Position numbers and translations under genes: made by a program
Notes under the pieces: model-generated
Seen by the model: only the letters and a program-made list of their open reading frames with translations
The model's database searches: none
Told to the model about the DNA's origin: nothing
Virus record (IMG/VR): IMGVR_UViG_3300045771_000049
Span: 88,148-152,147 of that record
Source: a virus
Lineage: Duplodnaviria; Caudoviricetes
Length of the DNA: 64,000 nt
Direction: 5' to 3' (one strand)
Part shown: piece after piece, positions 25,656 through 58,418 of the stretch
How positions within the stretch are numbered: position 1 is the stretch's first letter
How the letters are laid out: every line of letters starts with the position of its first letter

Positions 25656-28067
25656 TTAGACCAAAATGGCCGCTTCGCCGCCTTGCAGCGCCACCCCATG
25701 GCCCCACAGCGTCTTGACGTGGTTGGCCATCGCCGCAGCGTTGTCGAGATTGCGCCCGCGATAGGGCGTGTAAGTGAGGGTCAGAATGCGAGTTTCAGGA
25801 TCGACGGTGCTGACCTCGATCTGGGGCACCGTGTTGTGGCGTTCGTACTGATCGGCCAGACTGTCACGCACTTTCTGATAACCCGCATCGTCGTGGATCG
25901 CGGCGACCTTATATTCCGGTTTGCCGTTATCATCGTGGATTTGGAACAGTTTCAGGGCGCGTATCACTTCCGGTGACAGAAATTGCCGGATCATGCTCTC
26001 ATCCCGGTAGTTGGCCCAGATGTCGCGAATGACCGCCATCTCATCCTGGACCCCGGCGATCTCGGGAAACCACCGACGATCCTCATCGGTTGGTTCGTGA
26101 CAGATACGCTCCACGTCCTTCATGATCGCAAAGCCCAGGGCGTAAGGATTGATGCCGGTATAGCGGTGATCATTGAAGTTCGGTTGCATCACGACATTGG
26201 TATGGGATTGCAGGAATTCCAGCATCGCGCCATCGGTCATATGACCGAGTTCATGCAACCGGGTCATGATCCGGTAGTGCACATAAGTGGCGCACCCTTC
26301 GTTCCCGCACTTGGTTGCGCCTTGAGGGTAGAAGTATTGCGCGATTTTACGCACGATGCGGATGGTCTCACGCTGCCATTCCTTCAAATCCGGGGCGAAC
26401 TTCTCGCAGAACCAGAGGATGTTTTCCTCGGGCTGGGCAGGAAATTTCTTCACCTTAGCTTCCGGGTCTTTCTTCGCCTTGATCAACGAATCAAATAGTT
26501 CACTGATATGAGCCACGTCATAGTCGTTTTTCTCGGCCTGTCGTTTGCGTTCATTCACCAAGGAAAGTTTGCGCGGCTTGCGATACGGATTGACCCCATA
26601 ATTCATCAACGCGTGACAAGAATTAAGAAATGTTTCAACGACCTCACGACCTTCGCGAGCCTCGCACTGGTTGATATAGTCGCGCGCGAAGATCAGATAG
26701 TCCAAGATCGACGAGGCGTCGGTCCATTCCTTGAACAGGTAATTGTTACGAAAGAAGTGGGAATGGCCTTGGCAATTTCCCGTGACAGAGATTTTGTTAT
26801 TGCGGCGCATGACAAACATGCCGCTTGGGACGGTGAAGCAGTAGGCTAGGCCGTCTGGACTGGGAATGCGCGCGAATGGCTGCGGTGGTAAGCGTCCATC
26901 TTTGCTGATTCCAATGAGTGGTCGTTCAGACTTGGTTACATTTACACAGCGAGTACCGGCTGATATATGGCCGTGACATCCAGTTGCAGCCCACACGTAC
27001 TGGACAAACTCCACATCCTGTTTGAATTCTGAAGTAAAATTGAAATTTGGACTGGCGACCGAACCGTCCCAGTAGCAAACCTCCTCACCAATCAGTTTTA
27101 GTTGACGATATGAGGCGGTATACCACTCAGCAGTAAACCGCTTATCGATCATCGGATAACGGAAGAGTACAGAATGTCTTCCCTCATAGGTCGGTTTGCT
27201 AGTGTAAGCGATGCCGAGTTTATCCAAAAGCATTTTTAAGCGCGCGATCTTTCGTTCTTTCTTCAGATGGAATCTCATGATGTAGTCGGGTTTGACGTCG
27301 AAGTGCGTCTTATCGACATTTGGATTGATCATTGAACCGTCTGCTTTGATCGCGATATGCAGGCAGATTTCGTCATCACTCAATGGTAATTCGTTTTCGA
27401 TATCGATATGAAATCCGGTGATGAATCGATTGCACATGCCGCGTGTTTTATTCCGGTGTTGTTGGTATAATTCGGCACCCGTGGTCGTACGGAGCTTGTT
27501 ATAATGATCCACCAGGATCACCGTGTGGTCCTCGGTGATTGCCTGATCGATTTTTTCACTCTCAATATGGATGAAGTCAGTCTGCGGACGCTTGATGTAA
27601 GCTTCTGGCTCAACAAAATTCACGCGCCCATCTTCGTGATACTGGGCGACCTTACCTGCCTGATAGGCATCGATTCTTTGCCAGCCGGTTGGCGAAAGAT
27701 ATTCAGTATCACCGGAAACACAGGCGTGACTCAGCACAAGGCTTTGCATAGTCTGCGTGTTTTCCTCCATCAGATAAGCGATGCAGGGGTCGGAGTTGAT
27801 CACGATCTCATAGGCCAAGCCCTGATAACCATGCTTGTACAATTCCCAGTCACGCGAGAAGTGTTTACCGAACGACCAATGCCGGTAGAAAATCGGCATC
27901 CCATTTCCAGCATAGGCGTCAACCATCTGTTCGGCGGTGATGATCTCGATCTGGGCGGGGTACGGCGTCAGGCCGAGTTCCTGGGTGCCGATCCGTTCGA
28001 TTTCTTTGTACACCCGATTGATGATTTCAAACGACCATTCCGAAGCCGTCCAGAGATATTCGGCCAT
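25656..28067 (-). CDS. spoVR: SpoVR/YcgB family protein, intein-containing
   Basis: GMPIFYRHWSFGK, GLAYEIVINSDPCIAYLMEEN, HA(C)QGHSHFF, NEGCAT, NPYALGF. Confidence 0.93.
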   Translation of the reverse strand: MAEYLWTASEWSFEIINRVYKEIERIGTQELGLTPYPAQIEIITAEQMVDAYAGNGMPIFYRHWSFGKHFSRDWELYKHGYQGLAYEIVINSDPCIAYLMEENTQTMQSLVLSHACVSGDTEYLSPTGWQRIDAYQAGKVAQYHEDGRVNFVEPEAYIKRPQTDFIHIESEKIDQAITEDHTVILVDHYNKLRTTTGAELYQQHRNKTRGMCNRFITGFHIDIENELPLSDDEICLHIAIKADGSMINPNVDKTHFDVKPDYIMRFHLKKERKIARLKMLLDKLGIAYTSKPTYEGRHSVLFRYPMIDKRFTAEWYTASYRQLKLIGEEVCYWDGSVASPNFNFTSEFKQDVEFVQYVWAATGCHGHISAGTRCVNVTKSERPLIGISKDGRLPPQPFARIPSPDGLAYCFTVPSGMFVMRRNNKISVTGNCQGHSHFFRNNYLFKEWTDASSILDYLIFARDYINQCEAREGREVVETFLNSCHALMNYGVNPYRKPRKLSLVNERKRQAEKNDYDVAHISELFDSLIKAKKDPEAKVKKFPAQPEENILWFCEKFAPDLKEWQRETIRIVRKIAQYFYPQGATKCGNEGCATYVHYRIMTRLHELGHMTDGAMLEFLQSHTNVVMQPNFNDHRYTGINPYALGFAIMKDVERICHEPTDEDRRWFPEIAGVQDEMAVIRDIWANYRDESMIRQFLSPEVIRALKLFQIHDDNGKPEYKVAAIHDDAGYQKVRDSLADQYERHNTVPQIEVSTVDPETRILTLTYTPYRGRNLDNAAAMANHVKTLWGHGVALQGGEAAILV
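26775..27722 (-). mobile_element. intein (316 aa) with degenerate LAGLIDADG region
   Basis: CVSGDTEYL start, TEDH block B, AYCFTVPSGMFVMRRNNKISVTGN end, +1 Cys; AIKADGS and CYWDGS motifs. Confidence 0.9.
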
Positions 28068-28076
28068 GTTACAGTC

Positions 28077-29357
28077 CTATACGTTGACGCTTTGTTTTTG
28101 AAACAGCGAGCGAAAGACTTCAATGACATTGTCCGGTGAAGACAACCGTCGGGCCGCGACCTTCGGCGTGAGGGCGGCAATTTCAGCGAACATCTTCCAG
28201 ACTTCCGAGTCACGCTGCACCAACCCGTTCGGATAACCGCTGCTATCGCGACCGACCTCGACATAGGTCACATATTGGAACCACGGCAGCATGGCGGACA
28301 ATTTCTCCCGCGCTTCGGTATTGTCGCTGGACGAATTATCGCCATCCGAGCACTGCGCCATATACAGGTTCCAACTATTCACATCATAGCGTGAGATGAT
28401 AATCTTGCGGGCTTCTTCGTATGCTACGGACACGACGGTGCCACCGGTATCGGTCGCGTGAAAGAATGTATCTTGGTCAACCTCGGCCGCAACATGGGTG
28501 TGCCGGATGAAGACGATATCCACATGCTTGTATTGACGGGTGAGGAACAACCAGAGCAACAGATAGAACCGTTTGGACAATTCCTTCATAAACTCGGTCA
28601 CCGACCCTGACACATCCATGATCGCGATCATCACTGCCTGGGTGATCGGCGTCGGCCGCTTCTCAAAGTTCACATAGCGCAGATCGGATTTCTCTAAAAA
28701 GCTGATCGCGTCAGCGCTGTGTTGCAAGGCGGCGATTTCTATATTGATTTCGCGCTTGCGGTCTTCGTCGTCGGTTTCTTGCAATTCGCCGATGAGTTCT
28801 TCGATCAGCGCGAGTTTGGGGAATTTCAACGCGATGCGCCGACCGAGGCCCTGGATCATGGTGCGTTCCAGCGCGAGGTTGCTGGTCGAGCCAACCGTGG
28901 TGAAGCCAGCCCGGTGGCGAGTGAACGAGATGGTCTGCTTATTGGAGCGCTTGATCATGTCTGGCAGGCAGAGGTCTTCGAGGATGGCATCGACGTATTC
29001 CTGGTAGCTGATGCTGAACCGGAAGTCGTCATTCCCCTCGCCGTCCCGCGCGCCGTCTGAGCCACTGCCGCCGCCAGCGGGTGGCCGGGGGATGTTATCC
29101 CCGACCACGTAGTCTTGGTTACCCGGCAGCACGTAGTCCCACATACCTTTGCCTTTGGCGTAGTGGAATTGGGGTTCCTCGATCCCGTCTTTGGAGACGG
29201 TCACCTCGGTATCGGACTTGTCCTGGATGTTGCGGCCATTGAGTTGTTTCCGCGCCGCTGTGCGGATCGATCCTCTCACGCGCTCGACGAAGCGTTGCCG
29301 GTTTGTCAGACTTTTCCCACTGGGGTTCAGGCGTCGATCAATAATGCCGAATGTCAT
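28077..29357 (-). CDS. yeaH: YeaH/YhbH (DUF444) vWA-domain protein
   Basis: IIDRRLN..KS..NRQRF, PGNQDY, DLRY, MDVSGS MIDAS, TGGT, QCSDGDN. Confidence 0.93.
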   Translation of the reverse strand: MTFGIIDRRLNPSGKSLTNRQRFVERVRGSIRTAARKQLNGRNIQDKSDTEVTVSKDGIEEPQFHYAKGKGMWDYVLPGNQDYVVGDNIPRPPAGGGSGSDGARDGEGNDDFRFSISYQEYVDAILEDLCLPDMIKRSNKQTISFTRHRAGFTTVGSTSNLALERTMIQGLGRRIALKFPKLALIEELIGELQETDDEDRKREINIEIAALQHSADAISFLEKSDLRYVNFEKRPTPITQAVMIAIMDVSGSVTEFMKELSKRFYLLLWLFLTRQYKHVDIVFIRHTHVAAEVDQDTFFHATDTGGTVVSVAYEEARKIIISRYDVNSWNLYMAQCSDGDNSSSDNTEAREKLSAMLPWFQYVTYVEVGRDSSGYPNGLVQRDSEVWKMFAEIAALTPKVAARRLSSPDNVIEVFRSLFQKQSVNV

Positions 29358-29375
29358 GACAGGTGTCCTTAAAAA

Positions 29376-32300
29376 TTACCCAGACTTCTGCACTCGCATA
29401 TAATACTCAACGACACGCCGAACTTGTCGGGGCGTGTAACCTTTCTGGCTCATGCGATCAACAAAGTCATTGTGTTTATCTTGATCGTCTTTGTTCGACT
29501 TAGTACCGAAACTGACGATCGGCAGCAGTTCAGCCACGTTCGAGAACATCTTCTTCTCGATCACCTTGCGCAGTTTTTCGTAGGACGTCCACTTGATGAT
29601 TTTGCCGTTGGCCCGCTGGCGCAACACAAACTTGACGCATTCCTGCCGAAAATCCTTCGGATTGGCGATGCCAGCCGGTTTTTCGGTCTTCTCCAACTCG
29701 CCGTTCAGATATTCGCGGTTGAACATTGTGCCAGTGTCGGCGTCCTTATAATCGATATCGTCCATCCAGTGGTCTGCATAGACTATATACCGATCGAACA
29801 AGGTTTGCCCGAATTCGTCATAGGCTTCCAGGTAGGCCATCTGGATTTCGTTGCCGATGAACTCGACGTAGCGCGGCGCCAATTCCGATTTGATATAGTC
29901 GAGATACATTTTCTCGGCGTCGTTGGGGAACTGTTCGCGGATCAACGCCCGTTCCAACATGAACAAGAGATGCACCGGATCGGCCGACACTTCGTCGGTG
30001 TCGTGGTTGAACGTCGCGGATAAGACCTTGAACGCGAACCGGGTTGACGTGCCGGTCATCCCCTCATCAACGCCCGCCGCTTCGCGGTATTCCATCACCG
30101 GCTTGGCGCGCGGATCGGTCTCCTTGATGTTTTGCCCGTCATAGACACACAGTTTCGCCCACTGGGTGGAATTCTCATGCTTCGCCAGCCGCGTAAGGAC
30201 CGAGAATTCGGCCAGCATCTGCAAGGTCGCCGGGGCACACGGGGCATTCTTCAAGTCAGACGACTGAAGCATCTTCTCATAGATCAGGCGCTCATCGGTG
30301 GCGCGCAGGCAATACGGCACCTTGATCACACAAATCCGATCGATGAAGGCTTCATTATTAGAGTTTGCCTTAAAGTTCTGCCATTCGCTCTGATTCGAAT
30401 GCGCCACGACGATACCGTTGAACGGGATGGCGGAAATGGCTTCAGTTCCCATATAATTGCCTTCCTGCGTCGCCGTCAGCAACGGATGTAGCATTTTTAT
30501 CGGAGCTTTAAACATTTCAACGAACTCAAGCATGCCTTGGTTGCCCCGGCACAGACCACCTGAAAACGAATAGGAATCAGGATCATCCTGTGAGAACTTT
30601 TCCAGCTTGCGGATGTCAGTCTTGCCGACCAGGGACGAAATATCCTGATTGTTCTCGTCGCCCGGCTCGGTCTTGACGATGCCGATCTGTTCGAGCTTCG
30701 ACGGCATCACCCGCGCCACCCGGAACTTGGTGATATCGCCACCCGCCTGCTTGAACCGTTTGATCGCCCATGGACTGAGAATCATATTCAAGTAACGCTT
30801 GTCGATGCCATAATCGGCCATCAGTGCATGATACCTGGGCGCATTGAACAGACCGAGCGGCGTTTCCAGCACGGGCGACATTCCATCACCTGCACACAAT
30901 ACGTAGATCGGAAACTTGGTCATCAACTCGCCGACGCGGATCGCCAGACTCGAATTATGACTAACAATGCCGTTCGCGACGTAATTATGCGTTCCGGCAA
31001 CTTCAATATCATACATCGGCTCATCACAGTCGAGGTCAACGATATCGTCTATCTTGTCCCAGTAAATATCACCTTCGGCAAGTTCTCGCAACGATTCAGC
31101 GTTTTTGAAGAACTCAATGGCATATCGGACAAAGCCCCTGCGGGACCCGATGTTATTGTCGAGTTGAGTGCGCAAGTTTTCCTTGAGTCTGGACGTACCG
31201 TCTTTTTTTGATGCTAGTAGAGTGTTTGTGGCCTCGATCACTAAGTTCTTCGGCAAAATATCCCAACCACCCGAGTGCTTTCGTTGATCGATGACACTGA
31301 CAAACACTTCGTCACATGCCTTTTCTTTTCCATAAATACCAATTCTGGAAAGAAACGTCATGATATGATACCGATCATATATTGCAACAGTATAGGCTCT
31401 CCGTTTCTTCACCCCGTTCAAAATCGGCACGTAGGAGGAGATGCGTGCAGCGATACCAAATTTGCTTAGCAGCGAGCAGACTTGTCGAGCCATGATCTCA
31501 GACACACTGGTATAGCCGATTTCGTTATTAGTTCCGCAAGAAGCCCATCCATCAGTGGCGTATAATCTAGATAAAAATAACGCGACTTGATCTTCTTCCA
31601 ATTGGAACACGTAGTCAGGAATGAATTTTGTGTGACTTAGCGTACCGTTTAGGTTCAATTCCTCAAAACGATGGCGGATCGCCATTTCACCTTCGCGTTC
31701 ATTGATCCGGTAATAGTCGATCAGACCTGTTGCTGCTTCGATCTGCGGTTTGACGACACAGCCCAGTTCCGCAACTGCGCCTTGAAAATCAGCTACCACC
31801 GCTTCGTTGAAATTGGTGAACGTTATATTTCCAGATGCCGGTATATGCCCGTCACCCAGGATATAAGCTAGTACTTTTAGAAACGCTTCGTCGTCGCGTT
31901 TGGTACCGAACGGCAATGTCATTGCCGTAGCAATCAAATCCCCCGGTCGCAAAGCGTCAATTTGTTTCCAGCCATGGTTGGTGAATAAACGATGCGTTGG
32001 GGCTCCGCACACCTCCAAACCACGCGATGTAGTGACTTTCCAAACAGGCTTTTCATCTAGGATGAAAGTGTTGTTGACCTGCTCCGCACAGGTCCGATGT
32101 GTAGTTGCATCAGTCGAAACCACACAGTCACCGACCTGAACAGTTTCGATGGTTCTCCATGACCCATCAGCCATGGCGATCAAGGTCCCGGCACGGTGAC
32201 ATTTCGCGGTGCCGACCGGCCCCAGTAGATAGAGGATTTGCTTGCGTTCCTCCAAGCCCTGCGCGGCGTGCTTGAAGTATCCCACGATCCGCTCAATCGT

Positions 32301-32564
32301 GTCCTCCATGCCGTAGAAGTCCTCGAAGGCTGGATAGACTCGCACGGTGCGATTGGCGAAGATGCGCGACAGCCGAGGATCGGCCGAGGTATCAAGCTTG
32401 ACGGGATCACCAATGGCCGCAACCATGCGTTCGGCGGGTGTGGCATAGGCCATCGAATCGGTGCGACAGAGGTCCAAATAGTCCTGGATACTCATGTACG
32501 TGGTTTCGGTAATTTGAAAGTCGTTTTTGAGAAGGGCTACGATGTCCATTTGCTGTCCTGACAA
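29376..32564 (-). CDS. yeaG: PrkA/YeaG AAA+ serine kinase-family protein, intein-containing
   Basis: FYGMEDTI, GLEERKQILYLLGPVGTAK|SS Walker A, EPGDENNQDIS, EFVEMFK; true start may be ATG 32549; TAAATA at 32579-32574. Confidence 0.94.
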   Translation of the reverse strand: MSGQQMDIVALLKNDFQITETTYMSIQDYLDLCRTDSMAYATPAERMVAAIGDPVKLDTSADPRLSRIFANRTVRVYPAFEDFYGMEDTIERIVGYFKHAAQGLEERKQILYLLGPVGTAKCHRAGTLIAMADGSWRTIETVQVGDCVVSTDATTHRTCAEQVNNTFILDEKPVWKVTTSRGLEVCGAPTHRLFTNHGWKQIDALRPGDLIATAMTLPFGTKRDDEAFLKVLAYILGDGHIPASGNITFTNFNEAVVADFQGAVAELGCVVKPQIEAATGLIDYYRINEREGEMAIRHRFEELNLNGTLSHTKFIPDYVFQLEEDQVALFLSRLYATDGWASCGTNNEIGYTSVSEIMARQVCSLLSKFGIAARISSYVPILNGVKKRRAYTVAIYDRYHIMTFLSRIGIYGKEKACDEVFVSVIDQRKHSGGWDILPKNLVIEATNTLLASKKDGTSRLKENLRTQLDNNIGSRRGFVRYAIEFFKNAESLRELAEGDIYWDKIDDIVDLDCDEPMYDIEVAGTHNYVANGIVSHNSSLAIRVGELMTKFPIYVLCAGDGMSPVLETPLGLFNAPRYHALMADYGIDKRYLNMILSPWAIKRFKQAGGDITKFRVARVMPSKLEQIGIVKTEPGDENNQDISSLVGKTDIRKLEKFSQDDPDSYSFSGGLCRGNQGMLEFVEMFKAPIKMLHPLLTATQEGNYMGTEAISAIPFNGIVVAHSNQSEWQNFKANSNNEAFIDRICVIKVPYCLRATDERLIYEKMLQSSDLKNAPCAPATLQMLAEFSVLTRLAKHENSTQWAKLCVYDGQNIKETDPRAKPVMEYREAAGVDEGMTGTSTRFAFKVLSATFNHDTDEVSADPVHLLFMLERALIREQFPNDAEKMYLDYIKSELAPRYVEFIGNEIQMAYLEAYDEFGQTLFDRYIVYADHWMDDIDYKDADTGTMFNREYLNGELEKTEKPAGIANPKDFRQECVKFVLRQRANGKIIKWTSYEKLRKVIEKKMFSNVAELLPIVSFGTKSNKDDQDKHNDFVDRMSQKGYTPRQVRRVVEYYMRVQKSG
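30954..32201 (-). mobile_element. intein (416 aa) with LAGLIDADG homing endonuclease, inserted in Walker A
   Basis: CHRAGTLIAMADG start, THRLF block B, LAYILGDG and LYATDG motifs, MYDIEV..HNYVANGIVSHN end, +1 Ser. Confidence 0.94.
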
Positions 32565-35063: not shown

Positions 35064-36398
35064 TCAATCCTGCTTACGGCTGTGGTAGAGCCACAACATC
35101 TTGTACAACTGGTCTGCGTTCAAATCGGCGATCAGATCGCGCAGTTTCTGCGACGGCTCATTCGGATGGTGGATACGGGCGAGTGCCAGCATCGCGGCTT
35201 GGGCCTTCGGTCGAGAATAGGTAGCTTTGAGCTTGGCGATACCGGCCGCCTCCGTGCCGGGGACGCCCGCAACGGCACGGTCACCATGGACCGTCTCATC
35301 CCAGGGCTGCAAATAATTCGGATCACCCTTGGTATCCACCACCTGCACCTGAGTGATAAAACTCTTTGCGTTGGTGATTTTGTTCGTTTTACTGGTAACG
35401 ACCCATTCCCATTCGTAGTTGTCGCCCAGTGTGCCGTATTCATCGTCATCATCATGTGGTGTGACGGTGTGGGATGCGGCCAGTTTGTGCCCATCTAACG
35501 TGAGGACCACGCCCCATCGGCCGCCCTGGGATGACATTCTGGCAAACCGAATCGCGACACTTTCATCTTCGGTGGTACTAAACCCGAGATTGCCTTGATC
35601 GTAGCTGTCGATGTCGAAGGTGTTGCTGGCGCGCATGTCCAGATACTGTTGGAGACCCGTGCCGTGATACAGCGTCTCGGGCACGCCGTTATGGCCGTGT
35701 CGCAAGGTCTCGCCCAGAATGTCAGTATGTGAGTTCACTCTGCCGTCGAGCAGCTTATCGCTAGACGTTTTTGATGGATCGAAGCTGGCGTGTCGGGTGC
35801 GGATATTGTTTGGATGAAACACCACGTAGCTGTCGCCTTTGCCTTCGACACGATTGCCATAAACCAAACCGTCATAGCCTTGTCGCTCGGCGCTGGCTTG
35901 GATCGCGCGCCAAAAATCTGCGGCACTGGCTGTGAACTTGGCTTGTTGTTCGCTCTTAGACTTGTTCAGAGCGCCCCATTCACCACCCGCTGCGCGTCGC
36001 AATCGATCTGTTTGTTTCGCCAAGTCGAAAATACGATCATGATCCTCGTTATTCGGATCAAAACCTTTAGTGTTCAAACACCAAATCTTGGCGCGGTTCA
36101 TATAGGTCGTTCGCAACGTAGAAAACATATCATAGACACGCAGGGGGTTATGCAGACGCAGTTTGACGGGAATAATATTTGCGCCCGGCTGATACTCCGC
36201 ATTGTCAGGCGAACGAAATATTGGTCTTATGACTTTATCAGCCTGTTGAAGAGTCCCGAAATGCATCCCGATATCGCCAGTTCGGCGCGGATCGAACGCG
36301 TCAAAAGCAGCGGTCGTGCCGTGGTAGGCATCGATGTTGAAGCCTCGATCATCGGCGTCTTCCACCAGCCGTATCCATCGTCTCAGGGCATTTTCCAT
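35064..36398 (-). CDS. tandem ADP-ribosyltransferase-fold protein, putative internal head protein
   Basis: Domain 1: AYHGT..FD..GMHFGT..GYDG..SYVVF. Domain 2: LYHGT..GFSTT..AIRFA..EWE. N-terminus MENALRRWIRLVE; TAAATA at 36408-36403. Confidence 0.7.
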   Translation of the reverse strand: MENALRRWIRLVEDADDRGFNIDAYHGTTAAFDAFDPRRTGDIGMHFGTLQQADKVIRPIFRSPDNAEYQPGANIIPVKLRLHNPLRVYDMFSTLRTTYMNRAKIWCLNTKGFDPNNEDHDRIFDLAKQTDRLRRAAGGEWGALNKSKSEQQAKFTASAADFWRAIQASAERQGYDGLVYGNRVEGKGDSYVVFHPNNIRTRHASFDPSKTSSDKLLDGRVNSHTDILGETLRHGHNGVPETLYHGTGLQQYLDMRASNTFDIDSYDQGNLGFSTTEDESVAIRFARMSSQGGRWGVVLTLDGHKLAASHTVTPHDDDDEYGTLGDNYEWEWVVTSKTNKITNAKSFITQVQVVDTKGDPNYLQPWDETVHGDRAVAGVPGTEAAGIAKLKATYSRPKAQAAMLALARIHHPNEPSQKLRDLIADLNADQLYKMLWLYHSRKQD

Positions 36399-38218: not shown

Positions 38219-38998
38219 TCACCAATGCATCGCTTCGAGCGCCATCACCACCTTTTGCACATCCGCTGCATAGAACCCGGCATGACTGAGGCAGCCGATC
38301 TCGACGATGCCAATGTCATCGCCTGCGACGTAAGTATCCAACACGAACGCCCTGGCGGGTTGCCACAGGGCGGCCATGCGACCGGCGAAATCGACAATGT
38401 AGGGATCGACGATATCGCTCTGGTTCGCTTGCCCGTTCAGCTTATAGTGACTGCTCGAAATGACGGCCTGATCGACAATAAAATGGCGATGCTCCTGGCC
38501 TGTCGATCGAACCGGGCCGTAGAGAATTCTGGTTTCCGCCAAGGTTCCCTGGCGGTGGAGGATATCCGCTTGCCAGACCCGAAAATCGGCGCGGGTGGAA
38601 ACGCGTCCGGTAAAGCTCTTGTCGTCGAGCGATGGTCGGATGAAGAATTTGTCAAGCTCGGGATCAGCCTCGGCGATGGTGGTGAAGGTGATATCTTGAT
38701 TGAGCAGGTAATCCCGTAAATGTGGGTGCCAGACTTCGTAGGAGAAGGCATGGTTCAACAGGCTGCCGGGTGTCCAGCCGCGCTGCATTGCGATGTGTGA
38801 GAGCATGATAGACCCATTTGTGATGATCGGTCCCGCGTGAGTCACTTCAGGGATGAGTTCGTATGTGCCGCTCACCCGCACAATTTGATGCGGGATAGCA
38901 AATCGCCGCAAAGTTTCGAGCAAGGCCAGTCGTTCGTTTTGTTGGAACAGGTCTTCTTGGACGACCCAAAACATCTCGCTATCTGCCTCCGCCATCAT
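38219..38998 (-). CDS. ATP-grasp domain protein (R2K-like)
   Basis: FFIRP..DKSFTG, EHRHFIVD, FVLD, IVEIG..AGFY. Confidence 0.75.
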   Translation of the reverse strand: MMAEADSEMFWVVQEDLFQQNERLALLETLRRFAIPHQIVRVSGTYELIPEVTHAGPIITNGSIMLSHIAMQRGWTPGSLLNHAFSYEVWHPHLRDYLLNQDITFTTIAEADPELDKFFIRPSLDDKSFTGRVSTRADFRVWQADILHRQGTLAETRILYGPVRSTGQEHRHFIVDQAVISSSHYKLNGQANQSDIVDPYIVDFAGRMAALWQPARAFVLDTYVAGDDIGIVEIGCLSHAGFYAADVQKVVMALEAMHW

Positions 38999-39811: not shown

Positions 39812-39868
39812 ATGAGCAACACACCCACCACGACCCGGCGCGACGAACGCGATACAACCACGCGGTGA
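39812..39868 (+). CDS. putative attenuation leader peptide MSNTPTTTRRDERDTTTR
   Basis: 14 of 18 codons are Thr/Arg/Asp/Glu, matching the downstream tRNAs. Confidence 0.7.
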   Translation: MSNTPTTTRRDERDTTTR

Positions 39869-39929
39869 CCGCTCATGCGCGGTCGCCAGACAGGGCGGCT
39901 GCGGTGTTAATCTCCTTTCGGAACACCCA

Positions 39930-39954
39930 GGTCGCCAATTTGGCGGCCTTTTTT
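39930..39954 (+). terminator. attenuator terminator upstream of the tRNA cluster
   Basis: GGTCGCCA-ATT-TGGCGGCC followed by TTTTTT. Confidence 0.8.
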
Positions 39955-39993
39955 GTGTTTTGGAGACCAGCCTATGCATTGATCCCTTCGTCT

Positions 39994-40067
39994 GCTCGCA
40001 TCTTCCAATGGTAGGAAACCAGATTGTCGATCTGTGAACGCGGGTTCGATTCCCGCTGTGAGCGCCA
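39994..40067 (+). tRNA. tRNA-Asp(GTC)
   Basis: GCTCGCA/TGTGAGC-G-CCA; CAGA-TT-GTC-GA-TCTG; GGTTCGATT. Confidence 0.93.
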
Positions 40068-40069
40068 AC

Positions 40070-40146
40070 GGCGCATTCGTCTAGTGGTCCAGGATTTCCG
40101 GACTTTCAATCCGGAGACGACAGTTCAAATCTGTCATGCGCCGCCA
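40070..40146 (+). tRNA. tRNA-Glu(TTC)
   Basis: GGCGCAT/ATGCGCC-G-CCA; CCGGA-CT-TTC-AA-TCCGG. Confidence 0.93.
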
Positions 40147-40166
40147 CATGTCTATCGCTCTACTAC

Positions 40167-40240
40167 GACGCTGTCGTCTAACGGTAGGATTTTTGATTCT
40201 CAGTCAACCGATCGGGGTTCGATTCCCCGCAGCGTCACCA
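40167..40240 (+). tRNA. tRNA-Glu(CTC)
   Basis: GACGCTG/CAGCGTC-A-CCA; TTGA-TT-CTC-AG-TCAA. Confidence 0.88.
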
Positions 40241-40241
40241 C

Positions 40242-40321
40242 GGACCCGTATGCCCTCGCGCTTCGAACGCGTTGAAAGGCTAACTGGATACATGCAGGTT
40301 CGATCCCTGTCGGGTCCGCCA
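40242..40321 (+). ncRNA. atypical tRNA-like RNA (TCG/Arg-like anticodon, no canonical D-arm)
   Basis: GGACCCG/CGGGTCC-G-CCA acceptor and GCAGG-TTCGATC-CCTGT T-arm; CGCG-CTTCGAA-CGCG arm only 8 nt after the acceptor; D-loop-like TAACTGGATA placed 3' of it. Confidence 0.7.
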
Positions 40322-40337
40322 AAATCAATTAAACCCT

Positions 40338-40419
40338 GCCGGGTTGGCCCAGAGGCGACGGCAGCAGATTTGTAATCTGCGATACAACATCGGGGGTTCG
40401 AGTCCCTCACCCGGCACCA
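40338..40419 (+). tRNA. tRNA-Thr(TGT) with enlarged variable region
   Basis: GCCGGGT/ACCCGGC-A-CCA; GCAGA-TT-TGT-AA-TCTGC; variable region GATACAACATC. Confidence 0.88.
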
Positions 40420-40548
40420 CTGACCCATTATTCGCCCATTGCAGGCGATAATGGTCAATAAATGGGTCATCCCTAAGCCAAACCGGATACGCGTAAATAC
40501 CTCGGCGGCGGCAACGAATGAGCGTTTCGCCCGGATGGCGAAGCGCGC

Positions 40549-51254: not shown

Positions 51255-53072
51255 TTAAACGCCGCGAGGAGCTTTCCTGCCTCGCGGCTTCTTTTTGTCC
51301 GGTGGCATGTCCTGGAAAGCGGGATTGCACTTTACGACACGCCATTTCCCAGCGTCATACACGCGCGGTATCTGTTCGGCAATGGCCATTTGTCGCTCTG
51401 TCATACCGGTGCCAACATATTTGGCGAATCGCTTGCTTGATTTACGAAGATTAAACTTGTGAATGCGCCGATTAGCGATTACGTACATGTAATCCGGGGC
51501 GATTTCTTTCTCGACCGTAAAGCCAAGGATCGTGTATAGCGCGCCCATGCTCCATCGCAGATCAACAAATGACTTGATGGTCTGCCAATTATACATGCGC
51601 TCAAACGCACACAATAACCGACTCGCACCACCCACGACCGAATTTTTGCTGGCATAACGAACCAATTCCCACCCTGCGGATGTTCGTTCTGTAAACGACA
51701 TACAAGCCACCAAATCGTGCTGGCTCCGCAGCCCGAGATGCACGGTGGCAGAGGCGCGACCGAAAACATGGTGAATGTCGTAAAATCCGGCCGCCTCGTG
51801 ATGGCTGATCGGTCCGAGAACGCACGATCGCGCATAGGTCTTGTGAGTGGTCAGACCAAGCCGGTGTCTGATGGTGGCGATCACTGCCTCAGGGTGGTCG
51901 ATCCATTCATCTTCGAAAACTTGAAGCAAGGTGATATTTTGGCGCAACGCCATCAATCGTTTTTTAGCATGATAGGCGCGATCCCGGCCGAATGCTTCGC
52001 TATGCCAGATCGCCCCACCGAATTCGACTCCAAGTCGATGTGTCGGAAAGTAATTATCAATCTGCTGCCAACAACGGCGATCGTTGTCTTTACCTTCTGG
52101 AATCAGAATGTCAACATTCCGCTCTGGTGGCATTATTTCACGTGCTAGACAGTCGGCAAAAGCGTTTTCGGCTGCACGATGATCACCGCCCGTATAATCT
52201 AGTTCGATGTTCCATCGATAGGCATACCGATGAATCAGAGACGGATCATATCCGGTTTCTGCGGCAATATCACCAGCGCGTCTGCCGGTGAAACGCCGGG
52301 CGAAATCGGTCTGGTCGATGATGCGATGTTGCGGCAGGATATGAAGCTGGGCGATATGCCCGCCGAACCGCTGTTCCATAGTCTGCTTCATTTTGTGCCG
52401 CACTACAGGTGAACAGGCGGGTGCGACACCGCCATAGCGAAGCAAGTTCGTCGCTTGGATTTTGGCTTGCACGACCGGATGCCGCGCCACATTGGATACC
52501 CCCCACGTGGCCCTTACCCCCGCTCGCATACGGACCTGATGTTCCGGTGAATGACTGATGTGGTCCACACCGTGGTTCAGTTGCGTCTTGTCGCGGATAA
52601 CCGCTTTGATCTCGTCAGACGCAAACACGTTTTTGGCGCCATATCTGACGAGATTGGTGGCCTCGGCCGTCTCGCGACGACTGACCAGTGATCCGGTGTT
52701 AGGCACCCCGTAGCGGTCCAGGCAGGTATCACGGATTTTTTCTTTTACATCCGCTGCCTGTGCGGCATTGGCGACGCCTCGTTTGGCAAAGTTGGTCGCC
52801 TCCGAAGTGGCTAGGAAATGCTCCATAAAACACGGGCAGACACGGCCGTTGCCGCAAAACTTCCATCCATCCGCAATCCGCACGATCGACCGATCGCGAC
52901 CGGCTGCACAGATGGCCGGACCATGCAACAACGTTGCAGCGGCACGACGAATATCGGTTTCTTCGATCTGACCCAACGCCAATTGCAATTCGGGGGTCAG
53001 CTTTGTAACCCACCCACCGCGCCACCGCAACAAATGTTGTCGCAGCACTTCCGCCAAAGGGTGGGTCATCAT
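51255..53072 (-). CDS. homing-endonuclease-like protein (repeats + Vsr/EDxHD-type nuclease + GNAT-like C-terminus)
   Basis: TxxxRYG repeats, VEFGGAIWHSE, VFEDEW, ELVRYAS..VVGGASRL, DLRWS.G.LY. Confidence 0.75.
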   Translation of the reverse strand: MMTHPLAEVLRQHLLRWRGGWVTKLTPELQLALGQIEETDIRRAAATLLHGPAICAAGRDRSIVRIADGWKFCGNGRVCPCFMEHFLATSEATNFAKRGVANAAQAADVKEKIRDTCLDRYGVPNTGSLVSRRETAEATNLVRYGAKNVFASDEIKAVIRDKTQLNHGVDHISHSPEHQVRMRAGVRATWGVSNVARHPVVQAKIQATNLLRYGGVAPACSPVVRHKMKQTMEQRFGGHIAQLHILPQHRIIDQTDFARRFTGRRAGDIAAETGYDPSLIHRYAYRWNIELDYTGGDHRAAENAFADCLAREIMPPERNVDILIPEGKDNDRRCWQQIDNYFPTHRLGVEFGGAIWHSEAFGRDRAYHAKKRLMALRQNITLLQVFEDEWIDHPEAVIATIRHRLGLTTHKTYARSCVLGPISHHEAAGFYDIHHVFGRASATVHLGLRSQHDLVACMSFTERTSAGWELVRYASKNSVVGGASRLLCAFERMYNWQTIKSFVDLRWSMGALYTILGFTVEKEIAPDYMYVIANRRIHKFNLRKSSKRFAKYVGTGMTERQMAIAEQIPRVYDAGKWRVVKCNPAFQDMPPDKKKPRGRKAPRGV

Positions 53073-56714: not shown

Positions 56715-58418
56715 ATGCTCGAACGTTTAAATCAACTGATCGCAAAAGCGGGCCTTAAACAATGGTCATTCGCACTTCGCAGAGACCATGAGTTCCTCGA
56801 CTGGATCGATGCTCAAACTACGGATATGCCCTCTGACACGTCATTCCCGATCCGCGTGTTTTCGGCCGTGCACAATGAACGTCCCCTGTGTCCGCAAGGT
56901 CGGCAACGGACCTTGAAATCGATTGTTGATGGCTGGAGATTCTGTGGGAAGACCGGCCAGTGCGCTTGCGCCAGGGAATCGGTATCAGCCAATGTCAGTA
57001 AAACCAAATCGCTGGACACCGAAGAAGAAAGATTAGCCACTCAGCAAAAACGCGAACAAACGAATTTAGGGCGCTATGGTCACGTCAATACTGGTCAGAC
57101 CGAGACGGCCAAAACTGCCCATGCCGCGTTCTACTCGAACCAAGACAACATCAAGGCCCAGCTTCGGAAGCAGGTCGCCACCATGCAACAGAGATACGGC
57201 GTTACCAACCCCGCCCATCTGCGTGCGGTCGGCGAGCAGAAACAGATGACCATGCGAGTTCGCCATGGCGTCAGCAATCCGATGCAAAGTAAATCAATCG
57301 CCGTCCGATCGATTGCGACCCGCTTGGCAAACGGCTACGCCGAGTCCTATTATCGGAGAAACTACGATCGGATGAAGACGCGACTGATGGAGGATTGTAA
57401 GCTAATCCTGCTCACATCATTCGAAAATTATACCGGAGTGGCCGGAGCGCCGCTGGTGTCATTAAGTTGCCCGACCTGCGCACGAAACATCGAATGGCGA
57501 ATCGATTATGGTCATCAGCCGCGCTGCGCGGCATGCAATCCTCGTCCAATCAACTACAAATCCAAAGAGGAAATCGAAGTTTATAATTACATCTGTTCCG
57601 ATTTAGGGATCGCCAGAGTCATCTCCGGCGATCGCAGACTCATCGGCCCCTACGAGATCGATATTCTCAGCGAGGAACACAAATTAGCCATTGAATATTG
57701 CGGTCTCTACTGGCACAGCGAGAGTCAACGAATCAATCGGAACTATCATCTCAAAAAACACAATGCGGTGGAAAAACAGGGCTATCGTCTTCTTACGTTG
57801 TTCAGTGACGAATGGTTAGATCACTCTGAAATCGTCAAGAGCAAAATCGGCCATCTGTTTGGCTGTACTCCGGACCGTCGCTTTGCCCGCAGCCTTCAGG
57901 TTGCCGAAATCAACAATAAGGAAGCTGCGTGTTTCTACACAATCGCCCACATTCAAGGGCCGGTTGACGCCACCAAGCACCTCGCACTTACTGACCGTGG
58001 CAAGATTGTTTGCGCAATGTCATTCATCAATGCCAGAGAAAGTCGCGGTCTGATGTCTGGGGCATCTGAATTGGTTCGCTATGCTTCCCTGCCTTTTATC
58101 ACCGTGGTTGGCGGCGCCTCACGGTTATTCGCCCATTTCATCAAAGATCACTCGCCGATCGCGGTTATCAGCTATGCAGATCGACGATGGAGCGACGGCG
58201 GCCTGTATCGAAAACTGGGATTTACGTTGGAGCACACCACAGCGCCAGATTATAGCTATGTCGAGAATCATCGATATCGCCATTTCCGTTTCGGCTTCCG
58301 CAAGGATGTCTTGAAAAGTGTTCTGGGCGACTTTGACGATACCGAATGGGAGGTGATGCGCGCTCTTGATTACGATCGCATCTGGGACTGCGGCAAATAC
58401 CGCTTTGTCTGGTCATAG
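56715..58418 (+). CDS. homing-endonuclease-like protein (paralog of 51255-53072)
   Basis: GWRFCG, RYG repeats, CxxC pairs, AIEYCGLYWHSE, LFSDEW, VVGGASRL, RIWDCGK. Confidence 0.78.
   Translation: MLERLNQLIAKAGLKQWSFALRRDHEFLDWIDAQTTDMPSDTSFPIRVFSAVHNERPLCPQGRQRTLKSIVDGWRFCGKTGQCACARESVSANVSKTKSLDTEEERLATQQKREQTNLGRYGHVNTGQTETAKTAHAAFYSNQDNIKAQLRKQVATMQQRYGVTNPAHLRAVGEQKQMTMRVRHGVSNPMQSKSIAVRSIATRLANGYAESYYRRNYDRMKTRLMEDCKLILLTSFENYTGVAGAPLVSLSCPTCARNIEWRIDYGHQPRCAACNPRPINYKSKEEIEVYNYICSDLGIARVISGDRRLIGPYEIDILSEEHKLAIEYCGLYWHSESQRINRNYHLKKHNAVEKQGYRLLTLFSDEWLDHSEIVKSKIGHLFGCTPDRRFARSLQVAEINNKEAACFYTIAHIQGPVDATKHLALTDRGKIVCAMSFINARESRGLMSGASELVRYASLPFITVVGGASRLFAHFIKDHSPIAVISYADRRWSDGGLYRKLGFTLEHTTAPDYSYVENHRYRHFRFGFRKDVLKSVLGDFDDTEWEVMRALDYDRIWDCGKYRFVWS

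Follow-up and report, generated by a model that had tools for sequence, protein, structure and literature searches.

A phage-borne family of rewired-core tRNA genes and its member in a 152-kb phage record, a probable tRNA-Arg(UCG)

Outside organelles the topology of tRNA is regarded as universal. Among the described non-canonical forms, the D-armless tRNAs of metazoan mitochondria have lost the D-loop together with the contacts of the elbow, and are molecules of smaller length and greater flexibility (PMC7609411). In bacteria and phages, tRNAs with 8/4 or 9/3 acceptor/T stems are reported to keep the cloverleaf order and to differ in their stem lengths (PMC5389517). Permuted tRNA genes are also described for the red alga Cyanidioschyzon merolae, where the whole gene is reported to be circularly permuted and its processing to restore the cloverleaf (PMC3728597). 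Our survey of the literature, a 2020 review of non-canonical tRNAs included, found no description of the layout presented below; as its coverage is incomplete, the absence of a published description does not prove novelty. Herein we analyse a gene at 40242-40321 (+) of the window, that is, the whole 64,000-nt stretch of DNA under study, which belongs to a 152-kb phage record of 54.7% G+C with a CheckV completeness of 36%. As judged from comparison of sequences, the gene is, with a probability of about 0.8, a functional elongator tRNA-Arg(UCG) reading CGA and CGG, and would be a member of a class of permuted-core tRNAs that is specific to phages.

The gene consists of 77 nt plus an encoded CCA, and all of its parts lie on the plus strand. 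As stated in the initial annotation, it has a perfect 7-bp acceptor stem, a G discriminator, a CCA end and a canonical T arm, and the D hairpin is absent 5' of the anticodon arm. The 5' acceptor strand (40242-40248) pairs at 7/7 positions with 40311-40317, and the latter is the beginning of the 3' part (40311-40321) that ends with the discriminator G (40318) and the CCA (40319-40321). Behind the 5' strand comes the linker UAU (40249-40251), probably the equivalent of U8, A9 and a U opposite an invariant U at 40281, and then the strand GCC (40252-40254), which pairs with GGC (40278-40280) to form a 3-bp helix around the anticodon arm; in canonical terms GCC would be the D-stem equivalent in place of positions 23-25, and GGC would stand in for positions 10-12. 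Within this enclosing helix are found the linker CU (40255-40256), which may be equivalent to positions 26 and 27, the anticodon arm (40257-40271) with a 4-bp stem and a 7-nt loop CUUCGAA whose anticodon UCG lies at 40263-40265, and the linker UUGAAA (40272-40277), which connects the anticodon stem with the 3' strand of the enclosing helix. Directly 3' of GGC follows the decamer UAACUGGAUA (40281-40290), the D-loop-like sequence that had been pointed out 3' of the anticodon arm, and it can be read as U and then A14, A15, C16, U17, G18, G19, A20, U20a and A21. The linker CAU (40291-40293), whose U is the likely position 48, precedes the T arm (40294-40310) with its 5-bp stem and its loop UUCGAUC.

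The gene is part of a tRNA cluster (39994-40419, +) with the order Asp(GUC), Glu(UUC), Glu(CUC), the rewired gene and Thr(UGU). It starts 1 nt past the CCA of tRNA-Glu(CUC), and tRNA-Thr begins 16 nt downstream of it; RNase P and the 3' processing enzymes of the host would release the transcript from this tight operon. The neighbouring genes have peculiarities of their own. The tRNA-Thr(UGU) (40338-40419) is 82 nt long with a variable region unusually long for a Thr tRNA, which is kept in a related contig, L033; a similar tRNA-Thr gene is that of Sinorhizobium phage Phosso. Where the window has its canonical tRNA-Glu(UUC), relatives have an uncalled tRNA-Glu(UUC)-like gene (L033:1897-1975 and L017:1364-1440 (-)) whose acceptor stem is perfect, whose D-loop is very small and whose T loop is of a non-canonical AGCAUC type, and which ARAGORN misses. 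Behind the cluster, the window (40420-40548) is without an insertion of about 1.2 kb that is seen in near-identical sibling contigs (L026:1679-3000), where a TnpB (Cas12f1-like_TNB) gene lies between tRNA-Thr and a gene for a 550-aa protein; in L029 a different ORF, of 186 aa, occupies the same site. This looks like a polymorphic IS200/605-type element within the phage population.

The initial annotation proposed a comparison with the standard tools, and ARAGORN and Rfam were used for it. ARAGORN makes no call at 40242-40321 even with a relaxed threshold, and Rfam at gathering score yields nothing there, RF00005 with its cut-off of 29 bits included. The top sub-threshold Rfam match for the gene was tRNA-Sec (RF01852) with 26.9 bits against a cut-off of 47; a tRNA-Sec identity was rejected on this score, on an alignment that deletes the D arm and on the anticodon, UCG instead of UCA. 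ARAGORN reports 12 tRNAs for the phage record and none of them for Arg, and apart from the rewired gene no Arg tRNA was seen in these 152 kb; as the record is estimated to be 36% complete, other Arg tRNAs may exist in the phage. In this phage CGA and CGG make up 39% of the Arg codons. In the same 36%-complete record, neither an ArgRS gene nor a gene for a CCA-adding enzyme was found. The rejection by standard finders would suit a tRNA-Arg pseudogene that decays after a rearrangement, and so would the folding energy of the single sequence, which is unremarkable (z = -0.84, not unusually stable); because of the latter, the case for the gene rests on its homologs.

Few close relatives of the gene came to light. 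In a first search of viral contigs, neither an exact 24-mer nor the neighbour protein gave a match, a whole-cluster DNA search of GenBank phages returned ordinary tRNAs only, and in the contigs P0010, P0003 and P0004 synteny was lost or the contig was too short. An earlier gapped pattern built on the anticodon loop, D-loop and T loop gave one match, which lies within a coding region and was discarded as fortuitous. By way of the neighbour protein the relative L033, which is 67% identical, was reached. In its syntenic cluster, a canonical tRNA-Arg(ACG) (2066-2142) takes the slot of the window gene, and a rewired copy follows tRNA-Thr, with a wholly different yet perfect acceptor stem and with CUC/GAG replacing GCC/GGC. 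This copy has G at position 33, an atypical anticodon loop and no CCA, so that some rewired copies may be decaying.

A first pattern was made from the bases common to the window gene and the L033 copy; it fixed UUGAAA, part of the T loop and part of the D-loop, and left the helices and the anticodon free. In viral contigs all of its 63 matches share the 80-nt layout. Among 185,579 prokaryote species (one genome each) there were 41 matches, two of them real, namely on a MAG contig of 16 kb that also encodes a homing endonuclease and a lysin-like peptidase, and on one of 2.4 kb that consists of a dense array of tRNA genes; both are short MAG contigs with phage traits, and the class is essentially confined to phages. 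In a second pattern the D-loop region (columns 37-55) was left free as well, with the anticodon again unconstrained, and only UUGAAA and part of the T loop were fixed; this gave at least 123 distinct sequences in viral contigs, two of which are outside the family among the matches listed. A set of 113 genes was kept from the matches listed, with at least 6/7 acceptor pairs and at least 4/5 T-stem pairs, and this filter biases those two helices in the 114-sequence set, while the enclosing helix, the anticodon stem and the tertiary pair are unaffected. One degenerate member with a broken acceptor stem, L090, was excluded from alignments A2-A4, and L064 and one copy of L075, which read UAA rather than UAU, are absent from A4. 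Altogether the two scans of viral contigs gave more than 110 distinct 80-nt genes with the layout of the window gene, and a metagenome scan for the UCG type added about 7 further distinct members with different stems. Since both patterns fixed UUGAAA and a part of the T loop, and the first one a part of the D-loop, the conservation of these elements is partly imposed. The window gene itself is identical in at least nine independent assemblies of the same phage (L026-L032, L171, L174). A covariance model (R1) built from 63 homologs with the window gene left out aligns to it over the full length (1-80) with 97.3 bits (E 4.5e-27), and the gene is the best match across the phage record and related loci, while canonical tRNAs reach at most 28 bits. 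With RF00005, conversely, members of the rewired family score 22-30 bits versus about 67 for neighbouring tRNAs, and ARAGORN calls two of the 113 rewired genes among the matches listed.

The collection of homologs for covariation, likewise proposed at the outset, thus turned up more than 110 distinct relatives, and all four helices covary in them. The pairing analysis was done on 58 distinct sequences of the first pattern in a gap-free alignment, where 98.9% of the pair cells are standard (98% overall), compared with 35-47% in controls with slid partners (37-47% for slides of 1-3 columns), and where compensatory changes occur at 17 of the 19 pairs; the outcome is the same with 114 sequences among the matches listed. 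The acceptor stem has compensatory changes at 7/7 positions across the family, and the anticodon stem is paired at 98.7-100%, with compensatory changes at all four pairs. The extension of the anticodon helix by GCC/GGC, as claimed in the initial annotation, is confirmed by covariation: columns 11-13 with 37-39 are 100% paired in the 58 sequences and 99.7% in the 114 sequences among the matches listed, with four pair types per position in both. The further extension by UAU/AUA is not upheld, as there is no compensatory change and the middle pair is mismatched in 23/58 sequences. These residues are conserved without covariation, and they look like U8, A9 and their tertiary partners.

With such results a decaying pseudogene becomes very unlikely. 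A few members do have broken acceptor stems (L090, which adjoins a canonical Arg(ACG), and L191), which would speak for decay, but more than 110 distinct relatives keep the same helices by compensatory change, and the window gene has 19/19 pairs intact, every family-invariant base and the top R1 score. The absence of homologs, by which the gene would have been taken as degenerate, is contradicted by their number and by the clear structural selection in them.

Besides the helices, the single-stranded parts are strongly conserved. The UA of the UAU linker and the CU linker are invariant in the 58 sequences, although their bases were free in the search, and the CA before the T stem is invariant in the family; these linkers and the U after the helix are all present in the window gene. 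UUGAAA occurs in all members, where it was required by both patterns, and it is present in BLAST-found homologs of Streptomyces phage Mildred21 too, while Rhodococcus phage Trina has a variant of it. In the 113 sequences among the matches listed, the equivalents of G18 and G19 are near-invariant in a stretch that was left unconstrained. Moreover, columns 42 and 52 (40283 and 40293) covary, with A-U in 85, G-C in 20 and others in 8 of the 113 sequences, and with A-U in 86, G-C in 20 and others in 8 when 114 are counted, in both cases among the matches listed; this is the behaviour expected of the 15:48 Levitt pair. The decamer at 40281-40290 agrees with the D-loop sequence of canonical tRNA-Arg genes that occur alongside family members in phage loci, and therefore we read the 5' strand of the D stem together with the D-loop as having moved behind the anticodon arm.

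Under this reading all standard parts of a tRNA would be kept, the only change being that the block made of the 5' D-stem strand and the D-loop sits after the anticodon arm instead of before it, and with the block so placed the two D-stem strands would pair around the anticodon arm. The three enclosing base pairs and a U-U layer would stand in for the 4-layer D stem, and the four anticodon-stem base pairs and a U-U layer for the usual five layers of that stem; adding one layer for the junction, the stack would total ten layers as in the canonical D/anticodon stack, a count that supports the moved D arm. The relocated D-loop could still make the U8-A14, 15:48 and G18/G19-T loop contacts, so that a normal L shape would result. 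The elbow between GG and the T loop had been suggested before, and its formation in the normal way is plausible given the conservation of the D-loop GG and of the canonical T loop. A D-armless tRNA of the mitochondrial type was considered and rejected, as the gene has, and the family conserves, the GG-bearing D-loop motif as well as a canonical T loop. Processing back to a cloverleaf was rejected too: no rotation gives the canonical order with the acceptor ends kept, and the family keeps its ends paired. As for the origin, the layout could have arisen by a tandem duplication of the block from the D arm to the variable loop inside the gene, followed by two deletions, one of the first D strand and loop and the other of the second D strand and anticodon arm.

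Rewired genes are found in about 45 Streptomyces phage records, in the Microbacterium phages A3Wally and Zooman and in Rhodococcus phage Trina. They are almost always unannotated in these cultured phages; the one of Trina is labelled 'tRNA-OTHER'. In Mildred21 (MF155946.1, 73000-96500) there are four rewired tRNAs, three of them strong and the fourth divergent, which lie at 73703, 86379, 91367 and 94857 of the record, and the types found are Ile(GAU), Arg(ACG), Arg(UCG) and a variant Arg(UCU). Two of these genes are unannotated, the divergent one (86379-86456) is labelled 'tRNA-OTHER', and the UCG-type gene, SEA_MILDRED21_169, is annotated in GenBank as 'tRNA-Phe(gaa)'. This last label would favour a tRNA-Phe with UUGAAAG as its anticodon loop. 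We tried this reading and consider it extremely improbable: the five pairs that would flank such a loop are 24% paired, no better than shuffled or slid controls, and the bases of the would-be stem covary with other partners. Genes for a Ro-like protein, a tRNA nucleotidyltransferase and a tmRNA lie in the same stretch of Mildred21. The phage studied here has a second tRNA-like element about 2.7 kb before the window (G000:85367-85444, or L006:5367-5444), whose 7-bp acceptor stem is perfect and whose T arm, preceded by a D-loop-like motif, has the unusual loop UCCGACU, while an anticodon loop of 7 nt is not clearly recognisable; it scores 32.7 bits against R1. As this element resembles Mildred21 86379-86456, it may be a second rewired subtype or a decayed copy.

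It is from the anticodons and identity bases that the preferred reading as a working tRNA-Arg draws its isotype. The first set is Arg throughout (58/58), with ACG in 26, UCU in 20, CCU in 9, and UCG, CCG and GCG in one each; in the second set of 113 genes among the matches listed, 54 are of Arg type, 48 of Ile type with GAU or UAU, 11 have CAU, and there are no others. Both types can occur together, as in the locus L095 with one Arg and one Ile rewired version. The anticodon loops of the family are identical to canonical bacterial ones, and C35 is invariant in the Arg-type members, whose loops have U33 and A37. ArgRS recognises an identity set of A20, C35, G36 or U36 and an A or G discriminator, with A20 as the determinant in the D-loop. 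Among the matches listed, 53 of the 54 Arg members have A as the base equivalent to position 20, while in the 59 Ile/CAU members it is U in 55 and never A; the discriminator is A in 59/59 of the latter and G, A or U in the Arg members, and CCA is rarely encoded in the Ile/CAU members. The window gene has UCG at 40263-40265 and A at 40288, so that by the proposed numbering A20, C35, G36 and G73 are all present, and they would be placed for the arginyl-tRNA synthetase of the host. The tRNA-Arg reading that had been put forward is in this respect strengthened by the homologs, since those of Arg type all keep C35 and an Arg anticodon.

The distribution within the loci is also informative. Among the matches listed, there is no case in the 54 Arg members of a canonical tRNA in the locus having the anticodon of the rewired gene, although 20 of them adjoin a canonical Arg tRNA with another anticodon, and only one of the 48 Ile members has such a canonical counterpart; outside the 113-gene set, two UCU members have a canonical twin in the same locus. 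The patterns of anticodon, identity and non-redundancy are what one would expect of working isoacceptors, and not of a decoy or a wreck, as far as genome sequences can tell. A tRNA-shaped RNA that does not decode, be it a decoy for tRNA-binding enzymes, a Y-RNA-like partner of Ro or a processing or regulatory element of the operon, has accordingly to be weighed against them. Charging of the rewired RNAs would be an assumption in any case, Mildred21 with its three to four rewired genes encodes a Ro-like protein, and the L033 copy has an atypical anticodon loop, all of which would fit such an RNA; but among the matches listed the anticodons are limited to Arg, Ile or CAU, a pattern that speaks against a mere decoy, the bases at C35/A35, at position 20 and at the discriminator change together in the way that recognition by the synthetases demands, and the rewired genes fill the anticodon slots left empty by the canonical tRNAs of the same locus. 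The Y-RNA-like variant, which the initial annotation had offered, found no counterpart either, as the Y RNA and YrlA models of Rfam give no match at E<=10 within 39900-40500 and no TROVE (Ro) domain (PF05731) is matched in the 152-kb record (36% complete). A non-decoding RNA is thus in our opinion improbable, though less so than a pseudogene.

For the working tRNA-Arg(UCG), codon use can be compared with the leader upstream of the cluster, whose Arg codons are CGG, CGC, CGC and CGG. An anticodon UCG reads CGG by wobble and does not read CGC under standard rules, and hence the earlier statement that UCG matches the leader Arg codons stands for the CGG codons and fails for the CGC ones. The leader is a short ORF (39812-39868, +) rich in Thr, Arg, Asp and Glu, which are 14 of its 18 residues and also the amino acids of the downstream cluster tRNAs, and between it and the cluster there is a terminator-like hairpin (39929-39949). 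Order and composition of the ORF and hairpin are kept in L033:1637-1696 with substitutions within the same residue set, and the arrangement is compatible with a putative attenuator role.

Several other genes of the window merit mention. Just upstream of the tRNA cluster there are a gene for an ADP-ribosyltransferase (ART-PolyVal; 35064-36398 (-)) and one for an R2K-clade ATP-grasp protein (38219-38998 (-)), the latter at the same position in L033. At 25656-32564 (-) three adjoining large genes match phage families related to the bacterial YeaG/PrkA kinase, to sporulation-protein-like and to PhoH-like proteins; their best phage relatives are those of jumbo phages and the 'YeaG' of Enterobacter phage LAU1, and in a 1062-aa protein among them the N-terminal region gives weak matches of terminase/helicase type. 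The window further has a pair of paralogous genes for homing/HNH endonucleases (phrog_3339, phrog_559), located on opposite strands at 51255-53072 (-) and 56715-58418 (+).

If the rewired gene is a working tRNA-Arg, one may ask for the advantage of the layout. It is possible, and we put it forward tentatively as a refinement of the preferred reading, that the rewiring is adaptive and hides the tRNA from toxins or defence nucleases which recognise the D arm or core, yet leaves it acceptable to the synthetase and ribosome. In favour of this, phage tRNAs are reported to act against defences directed at tRNA (PMC11555353). The class is moreover limited essentially to phages, recurs in such different ones as those of Streptomyces, Microbacterium and Rhodococcus, and has retained its layout through many anticodon switches. 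On the other hand, no known nuclease is linked to the D arm of tRNA-Arg or tRNA-Ile, many of the carrier phages also have canonical Arg or Ile tRNAs, and since the anticodon loops are the same as the canonical ones, nucleases directed at the loop would still cut the rewired tRNAs. A neutral frozen accident that has spread with phage tRNA arrays is equally possible. In the same tentative sense one may speculate, more generally, that the cloverleaf connectivity is not obligatory in bacteria, and that a permuted-core design for Arg and Ile/CAU tRNAs has been spread by phages, is accepted by synthetases, EF-Tu and ribosomes, and was selected as an escape from host factors that recognise the core.

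Should the rewired genes be working tRNAs, several consequences would follow. Bacterial translation would tolerate a natural rewiring of the tRNA core, which bears on how the shape of tRNA is read by synthetases, RNase P, modification enzymes, EF-Tu and the ribosome. The tRNA repertoires of phages would be undercounted, as the only Arg tRNA of the present record is invisible to standard tools. Furthermore, the family would provide a natural scaffold for the engineering of orthogonal tRNAs and a concrete hypothesis for the escape of phages from tRNA-targeting defences.

To place the family among known systems, the nearest one is the canonical tRNA-Arg (RF00005; for example L033 2066-2142). The rewired gene has in common with it the 7-bp acceptor stem, the 5-bp T arm with a UUCGA-type loop, an identical 7-nt anticodon loop, a D-loop that follows the scheme A-A-Y-U-G-G-A-Y-A with A20 in it, G or A as the discriminator and the setting in a phage tRNA operon. 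It differs in that the 5' D strand and D-loop are 3' of the anticodon arm and no D hairpin is formed, in that there are 3 bp in the enclosing helix and just four Watson-Crick pairs in the anticodon stem, and in that the linkers UAU, CU, UUGAAA and CAU replace positions 8-9, 26 and the variable loop. Within the family, the rewired phage tRNA-Ile/CAU genes share the 80-nt layout, linkers, helices and 42:52 pair with the Arg type, whereas their anticodons are GAU, UAU or CAU, their 'position 20' is U, their discriminator is A and their CCA is rare. Like the mitochondrial D-armless tRNAs, the rewired genes have no D hairpin between the acceptor and anticodon arms and are missed by standard finders; unlike them, they keep the D-loop, G18/G19 and the T loop, have changed in connectivity alone and belong to bacterial translation. 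With the 8/4 and 9/3 tRNAs they share that they are natural non-canonical forms from genome or metagenome data which default tools miss, whereas the acceptor/T branch of the rewired genes is a canonical 7/5 and it is the order of the core segments that has changed. As in the permuted genes of C. merolae, gene segments stand in a non-standard order, but here both ends of the gene are normal acceptor ends, and as no rotation of the segments restores the canonical order, the mature RNA itself must be rewired.
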